Origin: Escherichia coli | GTDB taxonomy: Bacteria > Pseudomonadota > Gammaproteobacteria > Enterobacterales > Enterobacteriaceae | Reading direction: 5' to 3' (one strand) | DNA length: 64,000 nucleotides | Assembly: GCF_051903065.1 (NCBI RefSeq) | Contig: NZ_CP178438.1 | Shown: positions 4,814 to 12,604 of the stretch, piece by piece | Numbering within the stretch: the stretch's first letter is position 1 | Layout of the letters: each line of letters opens with the position of its first letter | Notes under the pieces: model-generated | Seen by the model: the letters and a program-made list of their open reading frames with translations, nothing else | The model's database searches: none | Told to the model about the DNA's origin: nothing | Program-made: the position numbers and the translations under genes

Positions 4814-6016
4814 ATGGCAATTAAATTAGAAATTAAAAATCTTTATAAAATATTTGGTGAGCATCCACAGCGAGCTTTCAAATATATCGAACAAGGACTT
4901 TCAAAAGAACAAATTCTGGAAAAAACTGGGCTATCGCTTGGCGTAAAAGACGCCAGTCTGGCCATTGAAGAAGGCGAGATATTTGTCATCATGGGATTAT
5001 CCGGTTCGGGTAAATCCACAATGGTACGCCTTCTCAATCGCCTGATTGAACCCACCCGCGGGCAAGTACTGATTGATGGTGTGGATATTGCCAAAATATC
5101 CGACGCCGAACTCCGTGAGGTGCGCAGAAAAAAGATTGCGATGGTCTTCCAGTCCTTTGCCTTAATGCCGCATATGACCGTGCTGGACAATACTGCGTTT
5201 GGTATGGAATTGGCCGGAATTAATGCCGAAGAACGCCGGGAAAAAGCCATTGATGCACTGCGTCAGGTCGGGCTGGAAAATTATGCCCACAGCTACCCGG
5301 ATGAACTCTCTGGCGGGATGCGTCAACGTGTGGGATTAGCCCGCGCGTTAGCGATTAATCCGGATATTTTATTAATGGATGAAGCCTTCTCGGCGCTCGA
5401 TCCATTAATTCGCACCGAGATGCAGGATGAGCTGGTAAAATTACAGGCGAAACATCAGCGCACCATTGTCTTTATTTCCCACGATCTCGATGAAGCCATG
5501 CGTATTGGCGACCGAATTGCCATTATGCAAAATGGTGAAGTGGTACAGGTCGGCACACCGGATGAAATTCTCAATAATCCGGCGAATGATTATGTCCGTA
5601 CCTTCTTCCGTGGCGTTGATATTAGTCAGGTATTCAGTGCGAAAGATATTGCCCGCCGGACACCGAATGGCTTAATTCGTAAAACCCCTGGCTTCGGCCC
5701 ACGTTCGGCACTGAAATTATTGCAGGATGAAGATCGCGAATATGGCTACGTTATCGAACGCGGTAATAAGTTTGTCGGCGCAGTCTCCATCGATTCGCTT
5801 AAAACCGCGTTAACGCAGCAGCAAGGTCTTGATGCGGCGCTGATTGATGCGCCGTTAGCAGTCGATGCACAAACGCCTCTTAGCGAGTTGCTCTCTCATG
5901 TCGGACAGGCACCCTGTGCGGTGCCCGTGGTCGACGAGGACCAACAGTATGTCGGCATCATTTCGAAAGGAATGCTGCTGCGCGCTTTAGATCGTGAGGG
6001 GGTAAATAATGGCTGA
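4814..6016 (+). CDS. proV: Glycine betaine/proline ABC transporter ATPase
   Basis: 400 aa; Walker [13 protein letters not shown] signature LSGGMRQR, C-terminal CBS domains. Confidence 0.95.
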
Positions 6017-7073
6017 TCAAAATAATCCGTGGGATACCACGCCAGCGGCGGACAGTGCCGCACAATCCGCAGACGCCTGGGGTACACCGGCGACTGCACC
6101 GACTGACGGCGGTGGTGCTGACTGGCTGACCAGTACGCCTGCGCCAAACGTCGAGCATTTTAATATTCTCGATCCGTTCCATAAAACGCTGATCCCGCTC
6201 GACAGTTGGGTCACTGAAGGGATCGACTGGGTCGTTACCCATTTCCGTCCCGTCTTCCAGGGCGTGCGCGTTCCGGTTGATTATATCCTCAACGGTTTCC
6301 AGCAATTGCTGCTGGGTATGCCCGCACCGGTGGCGATTATCGTTTTCGCTCTCATCGCCTGGCAGATTTCCGGGGTCGGAATGGGTGTGGCGACGCTGGT
6401 TTCGCTGATTGCCATCGGCGCAATCGGTGCCTGGTCGCAGGCAATGGTTACTCTGGCGCTGGTGTTAACCGCCCTGCTGTTCTGTATCGTCATCGGTTTG
6501 CCGTTGGGGATATGGCTGGCGAGAAGTCCGCGAGCGGCGAAAATTATTCGTCCACTGCTTGATGCCATGCAGACCACGCCAGCGTTTGTTTATCTGGTGC
6601 CAATCGTCATGCTATTTGGTATCGGTAACGTGCCGGGCGTGGTGGTGACGATCATCTTTGCTCTGCCGCCGATTATCCGTCTGACCATTCTGGGGATTAA
6701 CCAGGTTCCGGCGGATCTGATTGAAGCCTCGCGCTCATTCGGTGCCAGCCCGCGCCAGATGCTGTTCAAAGTTCAGTTACCGCTGGCGATGCCGACCATT
6801 ATGGCGGGCGTTAACCAGACGCTGATGCTGGCCCTTTCTATGGTGGTCATCGCCTCGATGATTGCCGTCGGCGGGCTGGGTCAGATGGTACTTCGCGGTA
6901 TCGGTCGTCTGGATATGGGGCTTGCCACCGTTGGCGGCGTCGGGATTGTGATCCTCGCCATTATCCTCGATCGCCTGACGCAGGCCGTTGGGCGCGACTC
7001 ACGCAGTCGCGGCAACCGTCGCTGGTACACCACTGGCCCTGTCGGTCTGCTGACCCGCCCATTCATTAAGTAA
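6009..7073 (+). CDS. proW: Glycine betaine/proline ABC transporter permease
   Basis: 354 aa polytopic membrane protein; overlaps proV end. Confidence 0.95.
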
Positions 7074-7129
7074 CTCTGCACTTGCCCGGTGACACCGGGC
7101 ATATCACCCTGCCAAAAAAAGGAATAACA

Positions 7130-8122
7130 ATGCGACATAGCGTTCTTTTTGCGACAGCGTTTGCCACGCTTATCTCTACACAAACTTTTGCTGCCGATCT
7201 GCCGGGCAAAGGCATTACTGTTAATCCAGTTCAGAGCACCATCACCGAAGAAACCTTCCAGACACTGCTGGTCAGTCGTGCGCTGGAGAAATTAGGTTAT
7301 ACCGTCACTAAACCCAGCGAAGTGGATTACAACGTTGGCTACACCTCGCTTGCTTCCGGCGATGCAACCTTCACCGCCGTGAACTGGACGCCACTGCATG
7401 ACAACATGTACGAAGCTGCCGGTGGCGATAAGAAATTTTATCGTGAAGGGGTATTTGTTAACGGCGCGGCACAGGGTTACCTGATCGATAAGAAAACCGC
7501 CGACCAGTACAAAATCACCAACATCGCACAACTGAAAGATCCGAAGATCGCCAAACTGTTCGATACCAACGGCGACGGTAAAGCGGATTTAACCGGTTGT
7601 AACCCAGGCTGGGGCTGCGAAGGTGCGATCAACCACCAGCTTGCCGCGTATGAACTGACCAACACCGTGACGCATAATCAGGGGAACTACGCAGCGATGA
7701 TGGCCGACACCATCAGTCGCTACAAAGAGGGCAAACCGGTGTTTTACTACACCTGGACGCCGTACTGGGTGAGTAATGAGCTGAAGCCAGGGAAAGATGT
7801 GGTCTGGTTGCAGGTGCCGTTCTCTGCACTGCCGGGCGATAAAAATGCCGATACCAAACTGCCGAATGGCGCGAATTACGGCTTCCCGGTCAGCACCATG
7901 CATATCGTTGCCAATAAAGCCTGGGCCGAGAAAAACCCGGCAGCAGCGAAACTGTTTGCCATTATGCAGTTGCCAGTGGCAGATATTAACGCCCAGAACG
8001 CCATTATGCATGACGGCAAAGCCTCAGAAGGCGATATTCAGGGCCACGTTGATGGCTGGATCAAAGCCCACCAGCAGCAGTTCGATGGCTGGGTGAATGA
8101 GGCGTTGGCAGCGCAGAAGTAA
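7130..8122 (+). CDS. proX: Glycine betaine/proline periplasmic binding protein
   Basis: ORF 7082..8122; start trimmed to [14 protein letters not shown] signal peptide with AAGGA RBS upstream (330 aa). Confidence 0.9.
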
Positions 8123-8130
8123 TTTTTATT

Positions 8131-8212
8131 CGGGCGGATAAGGCGTTTTCGCCGCATCCGCCGCTCTGTACACAATGCCTGATGCGACGCTGGCGCGTCT
8201 TATCATGCCTAC
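8131..8212. repeat. REP/BIME palindromic units downstream of proX
   Basis: cgggcggataaggcgttttcgccgcatccgcc and gcctgatgcgacgctggcgcgtcttatcatgcctac REP consensus palindromes. Confidence 0.8.
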
Positions 8213-8313
8213 AAACCACACCGCACATTTCAACAATCTATCTTTCATCCCATATTCATCAACATCCGCTATTATTGATTTCCAGCTTAATCATCACCTG
8301 ATGAACAAAAATA

Positions 8314-9498
8314 ATGACCAAACCTAATCATGAGCTTAGCCCGGCGCTAATCGTGCTGATGTCTATCGCCACCGGTCTGGCGGTCGCCAGCAACTATTAC
8401 GCCCAGCCATTGCTCGACACCATCGCGCGTAACTTTTCCCTTTCCGCCAGTTCGGCAGGCTTTATTGTTACCGCCGCGCAGTTGGGCTATGCCGCCGGTC
8501 TGCTGTTTCTTGTTCCTCTGGGTGACATGTTTGAACGTCGCCGCCTGATTGTCTCAATGACCTTACTGGCGGCAGGTGGCATGTTAATTACTGCCAGCAG
8601 TCAGTCGCTGGCGATGATGATCCTCGGTACGGCATTAACCGGTTTGTTCTCGGTCGTGGCACAAATTCTGGTTCCGCTGGCAGCAACGTTGGCATCACCA
8701 GACAAACGCGGCAAAGTGGTTGGCACCATTATGAGCGGTCTGCTGCTGGGGATCTTACTCGCACGGACCGTTGCCGGATTGCTGGCGAACCTCGGCGGCT
8801 GGCGCACCGTCTTTTGGGTCGCTTCGGTATTAATGGCACTGATGGCGCTGGCGTTATGGCGTGGTCTGCCACAAATGAAATCAGAAACCCACCTCAACTA
8901 CCCACAGTTGTTAGGTTCCGTTTTCAGCATGTTTATCAGCGATAAGATCCTGCGCACCCGCGCATTGCTGGGCTGCCTGACTTTTGCCAACTTCAGCATT
9001 CTCTGGACCTCGATGGCCTTTTTGCTTGCCGCTCCACCTTTTAACTACAGCGATGGCGTAATTGGTCTGTTTGGACTTGCGGGGGCTGCCGGAGCGTTGG
9101 GCGCTCGTCCGGCGGGCGGTTTTGCCGACAAGGGCAAATCGCACCACACCACAACTTTCGGTCTGCTGCTGCTGTTACTTTCATGGCTGGCAATCTGGTT
9201 TGGTCACACTTCCGTACTGGCGTTGATTATCGGCATTCTGGTGCTGGACCTCACCGTACAGGGCGTGCATATCACTAACCAGACGGTAATTTATCGAATA
9301 CATCCTGATGCGCGTAATCGCCTGACCGCAGGTTACATGACCAGCTACTTTATTGGCGGTGCCGCCGGTTCGCTAATTTCAGCCTCAGCCTGGCAACATG
9401 GCGGTTGGGCTGGCGTTTGTCTGGCTGGCGCGACGATTGCCCTGGTTAACTTACTGGTCTGGTGGCGAGGTTTTCATCGTCAGGAAGCCGCAAATTAA
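8314..9498 (+). CDS. ygaY: MFS transporter, intact
   Basis: 394 aa uninterrupted ORF with 12-TM-like hydrophobic pattern; positionally ygaY. Confidence 0.8.
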   Translation: MTKPNHELSPALIVLMSIATGLAVASNYYAQPLLDTIARNFSLSASSAGFIVTAAQLGYAAGLLFLVPLGDMFERRRLIVSMTLLAAGGMLITASSQSLAMMILGTALTGLFSVVAQILVPLAATLASPDKRGKVVGTIMSGLLLGILLARTVAGLLANLGGWRTVFWVASVLMALMALALWRGLPQMKSETHLNYPQLLGSVFSMFISDKILRTRALLGCLTFANFSILWTSMAFLLAAPPFNYSDGVIGLFGLAGAAGALGARPAGGFADKGKSHHTTTFGLLLLLLSWLAIWFGHTSVLALIIGILVLDLTVQGVHITNQTVIYRIHPDARNRLTAGYMTSYFIGGAAGSLISASAWQHGGWAGVCLAGATIALVNLLVWWRGFHRQEAAN

Positions 9499-9621
9499 GC
9501 AATCAGCAACCGTTTTCGTGGCTTTACACTTATAAGGGTGTTAAGAAGCCCATCAGTCTGATAAGGTTAAGATATTCATTCAGTCTATTTATAATATTAA
9601 CAATCGTTAAGCGTACACTCT

Positions 9622-10359
9622 ATGGAAAGCCCTACTACACAGCCTGCTCCTGGTTCGGCGACCTTCATGGAAGGATGCAAAGACAGTTTACCGATTGTTA
9701 TTAGTTATATTCCGGTGGCCTTTGCGTTCGGTCTGAATGCGACCCGTCTGGGATTCTCTCCTCTCGAAAGCGTTTTTTTCTCCTGCATCATTTATGCAGG
9801 CGCGAGCCAGTTCGTCATTACCGCGATGCTGGCAGCCGGGAGTAGTTTGTGGGTTGCTGCACTGACCGTCATGGCAATGGATGTTCGCCATGTGTTGTAT
9901 GGCCCGTCACTGCGTAGCCGTATTATTCAGCGTCTGCAAAAATCGAAAACCGCCCTGTGGGCGTTTGGCCTGACGGATGAGGTTTTTGCCGCCGCAACCG
10001 CAAAACTGGTACGCAATAATCGCCGCTGGAGCGAGAACTGGATGATCGGCATTGCCTTCAGTTCATGGTCATCGTGGGTATTTGGTACGGTAATAGGGGC
10101 ATTCTCCGGCAGCGGCTTGCTGCAAGGTTATCCCGCCGTTGAAGCAGCATTAGGTTTTATGCTTCCGGCACTCTTTATGAGTTTCCTGCTCGCCTCTTTC
10201 CAGCGCAAACAATCTCTTTGCGTTACCGCAGCGTTAGTTGGTGCCCTTGCAGGCGTAACGCTATTTTCTATTCCCGTCGCCATTCTGGCAGGCATTGTCT
10301 GTGGCTGCCTCACTGCGTTAATACAGGCATTCTGGCAAGGAGCGCCCGATGAGCTATGA
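9622..10359 (+). CDS. ygaZ: AzlC-family branched-chain amino acid (L-valine) exporter subunit
   Basis: 245 aa membrane protein; conserved pair with ygaH. Confidence 0.9.
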
Positions 10360-10684
10360 GGTTCTGCTGCTTGGGTTACTGGTTGGCGCGGCGAATTATT
10401 GCTTCCGCTATTTGCCGCTGCGCCTGCGTGTGGGTAATGCCCGCCCAACCAAACGTGGCGCGGTAGGTATTTTGCTCGACACCATTGGCATCGCCTCGAT
10501 ATGCGCTCTGCTGGTTGTCTCTACCGCACCAGAAGTGATGCACGATACACGCCGTTTCGTGCCCACGCTGGTCGGCTTCGCGGTACTGGGTGCCAGTTTC
10601 TATAAAACACGCAGCATTATCATCCCAACACTGCTTAGTGCGCTGGCCTATGGGCTCGCCTGGAAAGTGATGGCGATTATATAA
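10349..10684 (+). CDS. ygaH: AzlD-family exporter small subunit
   Basis: 111 aa membrane protein overlapping ygaZ end. Confidence 0.9.
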
Positions 10685-10774: not shown

Positions 10775-11305
10775 ATGGATAGTTCGTTTACGCCCATTGA
10801 ACAAATGCTAAAATTTCGCGCCAGCCGCCACGAAGATTTTCCTTATCAGGAGATCCTTCTGACTCGTCTTTGCATGCACATGCAAAGCAAGCTGCTGGAG
10901 AACCGCAATAAAATGCTGAAGGCTCAGGGGATTAACGAGACGTTGTTTATGGCGTTGATTACGCTGGAGTCTCAGGAAAACCACAGTATTCAGCCTTCTG
11001 AATTAAGTTGTGCTCTTGGATCATCCCGTACCAACGCGACGCGTATTGCCGATGAACTGGAAAAACGCGGTTGGATCGAACGTCGTGAAAGCGATAACGA
11101 TCGCCGCTGCCTGCATCTGCAATTAACGGAAAAAGGTCACGAGTTTTTGCGCGAGGTTTTACCACCGCAGCATAACTGCCTGCATCAACTCTGGTCCGCG
11201 CTCAGCACAACAGAAAAAGATCAGCTCGAGCAAATCACCCGCAAATTGCTCTCCCGTCTCGACCAGATGGAACAAGACGGTGTGGTTCTCGAAGCGATGA
11301 GCTAA
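10775..11305 (+). CDS. mprA: MarR-family repressor of emrAB
   Basis: 176 aa winged-helix MarR-like ORF immediately upstream of emrAB. Confidence 0.95.
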
Positions 11306-11381: not shown

Positions 11382-11431
11382 GGCAAGCAGGTCGGCTCAG
11401 CCGATGAGTTAAGAAGATCGTGGAGAACAAT

Positions 11432-12604
11432 ATGAGCGCAAATGCGGAGACTCAAACCCCGCAGCAACCGGTAAAGAAGAGCGGCAAACGTAAGCGTCTG
11501 CTCCTCCTTCTCACCTTGCTCTTTATAATTATTGCCGTAGCGATAGGGATTTATTGGTTTTTAGTACTGCGTCATTTCGAAGAAACCGATGACGCATACG
11601 TGGCAGGGAATCAAATTCAAATTATGTCTCAGGTGTCTGGCAGCGTGACGAAAGTCTGGGCCGATAACACCGATTTTGTAAAAGAAGGCGACGTGCTGGT
11701 CACTCTCGACCCGACAGATGCTCGCCAGACGTTTGAAAAAGCCAAAACTGCACTGGCTTCCAGCGTTCGCCAAACCCACCAGCTGATGATTAACAGCAAA
11801 CAGTTGCAGGCGAATATTGAGGTGCAAAAAATCGCCCTCGCGAAAGCACAAAGCGACTACAACCGCCGTGTGCCGCTGGGCAATGCCAACCTGATTGGTC
11901 GCGAAGAGCTGCAACACGCCCGCGACGCCGTTACCAGTGCCCAGGCGCAACTGGACGTCGCGATTCAACAATACAATGCCAATCAGGCGATGATTCTGGG
12001 GACTAAACTGGAAGATCAGCCTGCCGTGCAACAGGCTGCCACCGAAGTACGTAACGCCTGGCTGGCGCTGGAGCGTACTCGTATTGTCAGTCCGATGACC
12101 GGTTATGTCTCCCGCCGCGCGGTACAGCCTGGGGCGCAAATTAGCCCAACGACGCCGCTGATGGCGGTCGTTCCAGCCACCAATATGTGGGTGGATGCCA
12201 ACTTTAAAGAGACGCAGATTGCCAATATGCGTATCGGTCAGCCGGTCACTATCACCACCGATATTTACGGCGATGATGTGAAATACACCGGTAAAGTGGT
12301 TGGTCTGGATATGGGCACAGGTAGCGCGTTCTCACTGCTTCCGGCGCAAAATGCGACCGGTAACTGGATCAAAGTCGTTCAGCGTCTGCCTGTTCGTATC
12401 GAACTGGACCAAAAACAGCTGGAGCAATACCCGCTGCGTATCGGTTTATCCACGCTGGTGAGCGTCAATACCACTAACCGTGACGGTCAGGTACTGGCAA
12501 ATAAAGTACGTTCCACACCGGTAGCGGTAAGCACCGCGCGTGAAATCAGCCTGGCACCTGTCAATAAACTGATCGACGATATCGTAAAAGCTAACGCTGG
12601 CTAA
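11432..12604 (+). CDS. emrA: Multidrug efflux membrane fusion protein
   Basis: ORF 11420..12604; start trimmed to MSANAETQ (390 aa); HlyD-family coiled-coil adaptor. Confidence 0.95.
   Translation: MSANAETQTPQQPVKKSGKRKRLLLLLTLLFIIIAVAIGIYWFLVLRHFEETDDAYVAGNQIQIMSQVSGSVTKVWADNTDFVKEGDVLVTLDPTDARQTFEKAKTALASSVRQTHQLMINSKQLQANIEVQKIALAKAQSDYNRRVPLGNANLIGREELQHARDAVTSAQAQLDVAIQQYNANQAMILGTKLEDQPAVQQAATEVRNAWLALERTRIVSPMTGYVSRRAVQPGAQISPTTPLMAVVPATNMWVDANFKETQIANMRIGQPVTITTDIYGDDVKYTGKVVGLDMGTGSAFSLLPAQNATGNWIKVVQRLPVRIELDQKQLEQYPLRIGLSTLVSVNTTNRDGQVLANKVRSTPVAVSTAREISLAPVNKLIDDIVKANAG

Follow-up and report, generated by a model that had tools for sequence, protein, structure and literature searches.

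Intact ygaY, encoding a conserved MFS transporter of Escherichia coli, and the 7-bp deletion that disrupts it in K-12

The ygaY locus and its upstream region

The window is a stretch of 64,000 nt from the Escherichia coli contig NZ_CP178438.1 (assembly GCF_051903065.1). At positions 8314 to 9498 of its plus strand it contains an uninterrupted open reading frame of 394 codons plus TAA, which runs from the ATG at 8314 to the stop codon at 9496-9498 and has no internal stop codons. An earlier note on this DNA had described this ORF as an uninterrupted ygaY gene for a 394 aa protein with an MFS pattern. The description was borne out, as the protein matched the Pfam family MFS_1 (PF07690) with an E value of 2.6e-41 and 142.2 bits (gathering score 33.4 bits), and 12 transmembrane (TM) helices were predicted by hydropathy as well as by AlphaFold2. 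Together, the Pfam match, the 12-TM hydropathy, and the confident AlphaFold2 model exclude a chance ORF, and 8314-9498 is a real gene. Its start codon is in line with the annotated starts of K-12 and Citrobacter in the alignment. The identical protein is the RefSeq entry WP_000165699.1, which is encoded at the same position in strains ECNB21-M121 and BL21. In ECNB21-M121 the 1.6-kb ygaY region is 100% identical to that of the window, and the gene is annotated there as an intact 'MFS transporter' under this accession.

The ygaY gene sits between proX and ygaZ. Upstream are proV (4814-6016), proW (6009-7073), and proX (annotated start 7130, end 8122), while downstream ygaZ (9622-10359), ygaH (10349-10684), and mprA/emrR (10775-11305) are followed by emrA. 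In K-12 the same genes flank ygaY, proVWX upstream and ygaZ-ygaH-mprA-emrA downstream, and the nucleotide identity between the two copies is 95.7%, which makes the two loci orthologs. In the list of ORFs, proX begins at TTG 7082 (7082-8122) and emrA at GTG 11420 (11420-12604); the reference starts are ATG 7130 and 11432, respectively, and the longer ORFs are upstream extensions. The region also has its usual landmarks, the MicA sRNA at 16866-16937 (+) and four clustered tRNA-Arg(ACG) genes with a tRNA-Ser(GCT) gene at 19848-20575 (-).

The spacer between proX and ygaY contains, outside ygaY itself, a REP-type palindromic element at 8132-8209 (+), which matched the Rfam family naRNA4 (RF02564) with 73.5 bits at a gathering score of 59.5 bits. 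This element accounts for the median of 9 BLAST matches per genome. BL21 and E24377A have two tandem REP units, which adds about 100 bp, and in other strains the element is partly missing. The 91 nt directly in front of ygaY, 8223-8313 (+), are the presumed promoter and 5' leader. In an alignment of seven phylogroup representatives this region was nearly invariant, with two variable sites that are both BL21 singletons, at a synonymous divergence of about 13% in the ORF. The core TCCGnTATnATTGnTTTC is common to Citrobacter and contains a -10-like TATTAT (8270-8275), for which a relaxed hexamer scan found only a weak -35 element. A strict sigma-70 scan yielded no promoter in the spacer or in 8223-8313, and no Rfam family matched within the 91 nt. 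In the scan of 8050-9700 for sigma-70 promoters and terminators the counts did not exceed the shuffle expectation, and the sole hit, 9567-9595, precedes ygaZ. The sequence conservation suggests that 8223-8313 is a conserved regulatory region or promoter.

The K-12 deletion and the ygaY alleles of E. coli

In MG1655 (NC_000913.3), ygaY (b2681, 2808316-2809493) is annotated as a pseudogene of 1178 bp and not as an intact gene of the length found in the window, in agreement with what the earlier note had stated about K-12. In BW25113 the gene is labelled 'MFS transporter, frameshifted' by PGAP, and the copies of BW25113 and DH1 also span 1178 bp. A MAFFT alignment of the window gene with that of MG1655 contained a single indel, a 7-bp deletion in K-12. 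The seven nucleotides that are absent from K-12, GGCAGGT, are located at 8571-8577 (+), which corresponds to gene nt 258-264 in codons 86-88 and thus to TM3; this placement is ambiguous by 4 nt, as GGCA is repeated at 8578-8581. The frameshift leads to a stop at codon 89, and the K-12 product ends with ...MTLLAAC after 88 residues. Translation of the K-12 sequence 3' of the lesion in the shifted frame yields the window protein, and all remaining differences between the two genes are synonymous (51 synonymous, 0 nonsynonymous). A split working protein in K-12, produced by re-initiation at an ATG that overlaps the new stop codon, was also considered and is unlikely on sequence inspection, as the break lies inside TM3 and a properly spaced Shine-Dalgarno motif is missing.

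The origin of the deletion can be traced with E. coli C, whose ygaY region is closely related to that of K-12. Its ygaY is intact, has 1185 bp, and, apart from the 7 bp, deviates from that of K-12 in a single base. Where K-12 has the lesion, E. coli C has the sequence GGCATGC-GGCATGT, a 7-bp tandem near-repeat that results from a Gly88Cys variant, and K-12 keeps exactly one of the two units. We therefore regard the K-12 deletion as a recent event of replication slippage on the Cys88 allele, and this slippage within TM3 is how K-12 lost ygaY. The window has GGCAGGT-GGCATGT at 8568-8581, and the sequence of the Cys88 allele is the more slippage-prone of the two.

The distribution of the alleles was quantified in 5,426 complete E. 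coli genomes. A 44-mer spanning the deletion junction was fully matched in 353 genomes, and all 19 carriers that were sampled look like K-12 derivatives or laboratory-type genomes of K-12 size, including MG1655, ER1709, MFDpir, and O16:H48. A further 789 genomes, among them E. coli C and NCTC9087, matched only the first 28 nt of the 44-mer, a pattern that identifies the undeleted Cys88 precursor allele. The ygaY ORF was matched over at least 80% of its length in 5,413 of the 5,426 genomes. Among 60 genomes sampled at even spacing, the 55 full-length non-K-12 copies all span exactly 1185 bp, four K-12 derivatives span 1178 bp, and one strain, PCP06021, carries a deletion (L012, 4001-4463) that fuses nt 1-158 of ygaY to ygaH. 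Seven alleles (O157:H7, UTI89, E24377A, BL21, SMS-3-5, NIST0056, and C) translate without stop codons, and most of ygaY is missing from only about 0.2% of the non-K-12 genomes. An intact ygaY is the normal state of wild-type E. coli, from which K-12 deviates: about 93% of the complete genomes are intact (about 5,060 non-K-12 genomes at full length), a value that rests on match length and sampled translations and leaves rare nonsense alleles uncounted. The strain analyzed here does retain ygaY, as had been proposed, but this retention gives it no special status. It does show that the window derives from an E. coli outside the K-12 lineage, and it places ygaY among the known pseudogenes specific to K-12.

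Independent lesions occur elsewhere as well (proteins P0146, P0226, P0249, P0121, and P0123): the N-terminus of YgaY is joined to MprA or EmrA sequence, an internal stretch is deleted in frame, or the frame shifts near codon 230. A few truncated or fused YgaY variants are also present in protein databases. The fusions to MprA and EmrA imply deletions that take out ygaZH together with mprA, the repressor gene of emrAB, and such deletions might have been selected through derepression of emrAB. One protein from a 5.4-kb ENA metagenome contig (P0001) has 596 aa and scored 1092 bits against YgaY at 73% identity, whereas a perfect single copy scores 834 bits; this suggests that ygaY was duplicated internally or fused in tandem there, or that the contig was misassembled.

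The window allele is matched at 99% identity or more in just 3 of the 5,426 genomes. Compared with K-12, the divergence has a spike at about 7750-9350, from the 3' end of proX to most of ygaY, with 4-7% mismatches versus about 0.4-1% in the flanks. Accordingly, the dS values between window and K-12 are 0.186 for ygaY and 0.10 for proX, and 0.01-0.05 for proV, proW, ygaZ, ygaH, mprA, and emrA. This pattern looks like a recombination mosaic or like old allelic lineages. An allele that is uniquely divergent, or was imported from another species, was rejected because the major E. coli ygaY alleles are all mutually divergent (dS 0.08-0.2) and the protein, which hardly changes among them, is the standard E. 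coli YgaY.

Nine ygaY alleles were used to quantify selection. The mean pairwise dS was 0.131 and the mean dN was 0.0035, resulting in a dN/dS of 0.026. Between the window and BL21 there are 50 synonymous and 0 nonsynonymous differences. Orthologous proteins are present in E. fergusonii (98% identity), E. marmotae (about 98%), E. albertii (about 96%), and Citrobacter (93%). The low dN/dS, the complete lack of amino acid changes versus BL21 and K-12, and the orthologs across genera show that YgaY is under strong purifying selection. This is strong evidence, drawn from sequence comparisons, that YgaY is made and selected in nature, and it agrees with the earlier proposal that the gene is probably functional in this strain.

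The pseudogene status of ygaY in K-12 is standard knowledge; the gene has been described as cryptic, and intact copies are routinely annotated elsewhere. In the literature, K-12 ygaY is widely used as a neutral locus, both as a pseudogene control in experiments with Keio strains and for integrations into engineered MG1655. The additions made here are modest: they define the lesion exactly, trace it to slippage on the Cys88 allele, count the alleles in the population, estimate how strong purifying selection is, and caution that the assumption of a 'neutral' locus is specific to K-12. It fails to carry over to BL21 and to wild strains, in which the gene is intact and selected.

Family, fold and conserved residues

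The AlphaFold2 model of YgaY, which was based on a 60-sequence alignment, is all-helical and has a pLDDT of 93.9 and a pTM of 0.92. The 12 helices are arranged in two six-helix halves with a central loop at residues 185-195. Relatives of YgaY form 8,983 clusters of 50% identity at E<=1e-3 and 1,144 clusters at E<=1e-30, and all 60 aligned relatives also matched MFS_1. In a published table (PMC5417439), E. coli YgaY (P76628) is listed as TCDB 2.A.1.36.3 in the 'Acriflavin-sensitivity (YnfM) family' with the remark that the function is unknown. BLASTP of YgaY versus K-12 YnfM gave 26% identity over 409 columns (E 2e-20) and covered the full length, and a profile comparison with hhalign resulted in a probability of 99.7% (E 1.3e-26). 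By sequence, YgaY is a distant paralog of YnfM and not its ortholog. The full-length similarity to the SotB-type family PRK03545 (E 1.4e-17) is about as strong.

The search for an equivalog name in NCBIfam returned 25 weak matches, none of them near its curated cutoff. The full-length matches among them are efflux families, i.e. SotB-type PRK03545, Cmx/CmrA, and Bcr/CflA. A sequence search of the PDB yielded only marginal matches, with GlcP at E 3e-8 and SotB at E 5e-4, which are uninformative on the substrate. The best solved folds for the YgaY model, as determined with Foldseek, were SotB, with TM-scores of 0.84-0.90, followed by MdfA and NorA.

The conserved residues were analyzed with the alignment of 60 relatives. 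The cytoplasmic loop between TM2 and TM3 contains a motif-A-like sequence, G70-D71-M-F-E-R75-R76-R77 (8523-8546, +; sequence inspection), which was counted as a variant of G-x-x-x-D-R/K-x-G-R-R/K, and its counterpart in the second half is GGFADKGK at residues 268-275. G70, D71, and D272 are each kept in at least 90% of the 60 family members. The DHA1 antiporter motif C (GxxxGPxxGG) was absent from YgaY and from all 60 relatives in a regex search, and therefore YgaY was not filed as DHA1. TM5 of YgaY has the sequence GTIMSGLLLGILLARTVAG, and an invariant arginine takes the place of the canonical motif C. This residue, Arg151 (codon 8764-8766, +), is membrane-embedded, present in 60 of 60 sequences, and aligned with an arginine in YnfM. 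In TM10, Asp312 (codon 9247-9249, +) is an aspartate in 54 and a glutamate in two of the 60 sequences. Further conserved polar residues are Q316 (52 of 60), N322, and Q323 in TM10, Y28 and Q31 in TM1, and Q56 and Y59 in TM2. Arg151 is a candidate residue for coupling to substrate or protons, and Asp312 is a candidate protonation site.

Transport direction and comparison with known systems

With a probability of roughly 85%, the ygaY of the window is a wild-type functional allele that encodes a 394-aa, 12-helix MFS secondary transporter and belongs to a YgaY subfamily within the YnfM family (TCDB 2.A.1.36). Identity, intactness, purifying selection, and MFS fold are established by the results above, and from there we infer the mechanism. 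YgaY would operate by the rocker-switch alternating access of MFS proteins, powered by the proton gradient. R151, D312, and a polar ring of Y28, Q31, Q56, Y59, N322, and Q323 would form the site for substrate and proton, and a small organic metabolite or xenobiotic, possibly an anionic one, would be exported. An anionic substrate would be in keeping with the buried, invariant arginine, by analogy with the dicarboxylate exporter YnfM.

The earlier note had called the substrate unknown, which agrees with the TCDB entry quoted above and with our literature searches. The latter, directed at YgaY function, retrieved only uses of the K-12 gene as a pseudogene or neutral site, chromatin studies of H-NS and proU, list entries, and unrelated materials science. 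YnfM has been reported to be a CCCP-sensitive glutarate exporter, and in BL21(DE3) deletion of ynfM alone abolished glutarate export (PMC12622518). Glutarate export was not transferred to YgaY, as the BL21 ynfM deletion mutant has no residual export although it encodes the identical YgaY.

The similarity of MFS folds decides neither direction nor substrate. Nevertheless, export is somewhat favored as the likeliest direction, because the best structural neighbors of YgaY are DHA1 exporters, the NCBIfam families matched over the full length are efflux families, and YnfM is reported to be an exporter. Alternatively, YgaY might be functional as an importer, i.e. a proton symporter for a nutrient such as an aromatic or another organic acid. 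This is clearly less probable. In its favor, the top-scoring NCBIfam match is the aromatic acid/H+ symport family TIGR00895 (E 6e-22), the symporters DgoT and GlpT are also among the fold neighbors, and the lack of motif C in YgaY and its relatives would fit as well. However, the TIGR00895 match is confined to the generic N-terminal half (residues 20-187) and is far below the cutoff (78 versus 418 bits), and the full-length sequence matches, the best structural matches, and the characterized relative YnfM are all exporters.

It is also conceivable, albeit improbable, that YgaY works together with its neighbors, either in an osmoregulatory module with proVWX, e.g. for the release of compatible solutes, or in an 'efflux island' with ygaZH, which encodes a valine exporter, and mprA-emrAB. 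The gene order nrdEF-proVWX-ygaY-ygaZH-mprA-emrAB is indeed common to Escherichia and Citrobacter, but the two genera are so closely related that their synteny tells little. The neighborhoods of homologs with 57, 50, 46, and 41% identity were four unrelated ones, without a recurring regulator, enzyme, or partner. Transcript data from K-12 have also been taken into account (PMC10656529; bioRxiv 10.64898/2026.02.10.705075). In these studies ygaY transcript levels were low, rose moderately after hyperosmotic shock, and rose 11-fold in an stpA mutant; the osmotic induction, which would fit an osmoregulatory module, was attributed by the authors to read-through from proX or to local decompaction. 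A minor H-NS peak at ygaY was not always reproducible, and the ygaY region bridges to the downstream regulatory element of proV via H-NS (same references).

With low transcript levels in K-12 and no consensus sigma-70 promoter upstream, the expression of YgaY is uncertain. These two observations, the H-NS signal in some ChIP data sets together with the bridge to proV, and the occasional independent truncations and deletions in other strains would fit a gene that is intact yet silenced by H-NS in wild strains, has no current role, and took the first step of decay in K-12, but this is very improbable, as a dN/dS of 0.026 over a dS of about 0.13 with 0 amino acid changes at 50-51 synonymous ones (BL21 and K-12) cannot be reconciled with a gene unseen by selection, orthologs across genera keep 93-98% of the protein sequence, the 91 nt upstream are conserved as well, and so few non-K-12 genomes have lost most of the gene.

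A wider and rather speculative view, which we regard as improbable, is that YgaY is a strongly conserved core-genome transporter whose role has been overlooked since nearly all E. coli genetics was performed with K-12, the single lineage in which it is broken. If true, YgaY might export a metabolite or a compound derived from host or environment, possibly tied to osmotic transitions via the conserved upstream region and read-through from proVWX, and repair of the gene in K-12 or its deletion in BL21 or wild strains would expose a new substrate and phenotype. BL21, which encodes the identical YgaY, is a convenient host for finding the substrate of this orphan transporter.

The closest known systems are the copies of the gene in other E. 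coli strains. K-12 ygaY (b2681; UniProt P76628; TCDB 2.A.1.36.3) is at the same locus and has identical amino acids once the 7 bp of the window are restored; without 8571-8577 it terminates at codon 89. The immediate ancestor allele of K-12, as present in E. coli C, has Cys88 in contrast to Gly88 in the window. E. coli B and BL21(DE3) have an intact 394-aa YgaY (WP_000165699.1) that is identical to that of the window, and their DNA differs by the 50 synonymous differences (dS 0.18) and by the second REP unit in tandem upstream.

Among characterized transporters, YnfM (b1596; TCDB 2.A.1.36.1) is a full-length homolog from the same TCDB family that shares the arrangement of the 12 TMs and the arginine of TM5, and it is a reported exporter of glutarate and other dicarboxylates and a candidate for arabinose efflux. 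It differs from YgaY in that the residue aligned to D312 is non-acidic, and ynfM adjoins the divergent LysR regulator gene ynfL, whereas ygaY has no such neighbor. The solved DHA1 antiporters SotB (6KKK/6KKL), MdfA (4ZOW), and NorA (8TTE) share the 12-TM fold with YgaY (TM-scores of 0.80-0.90 for the entire chain), at a sequence identity of 15-18%.
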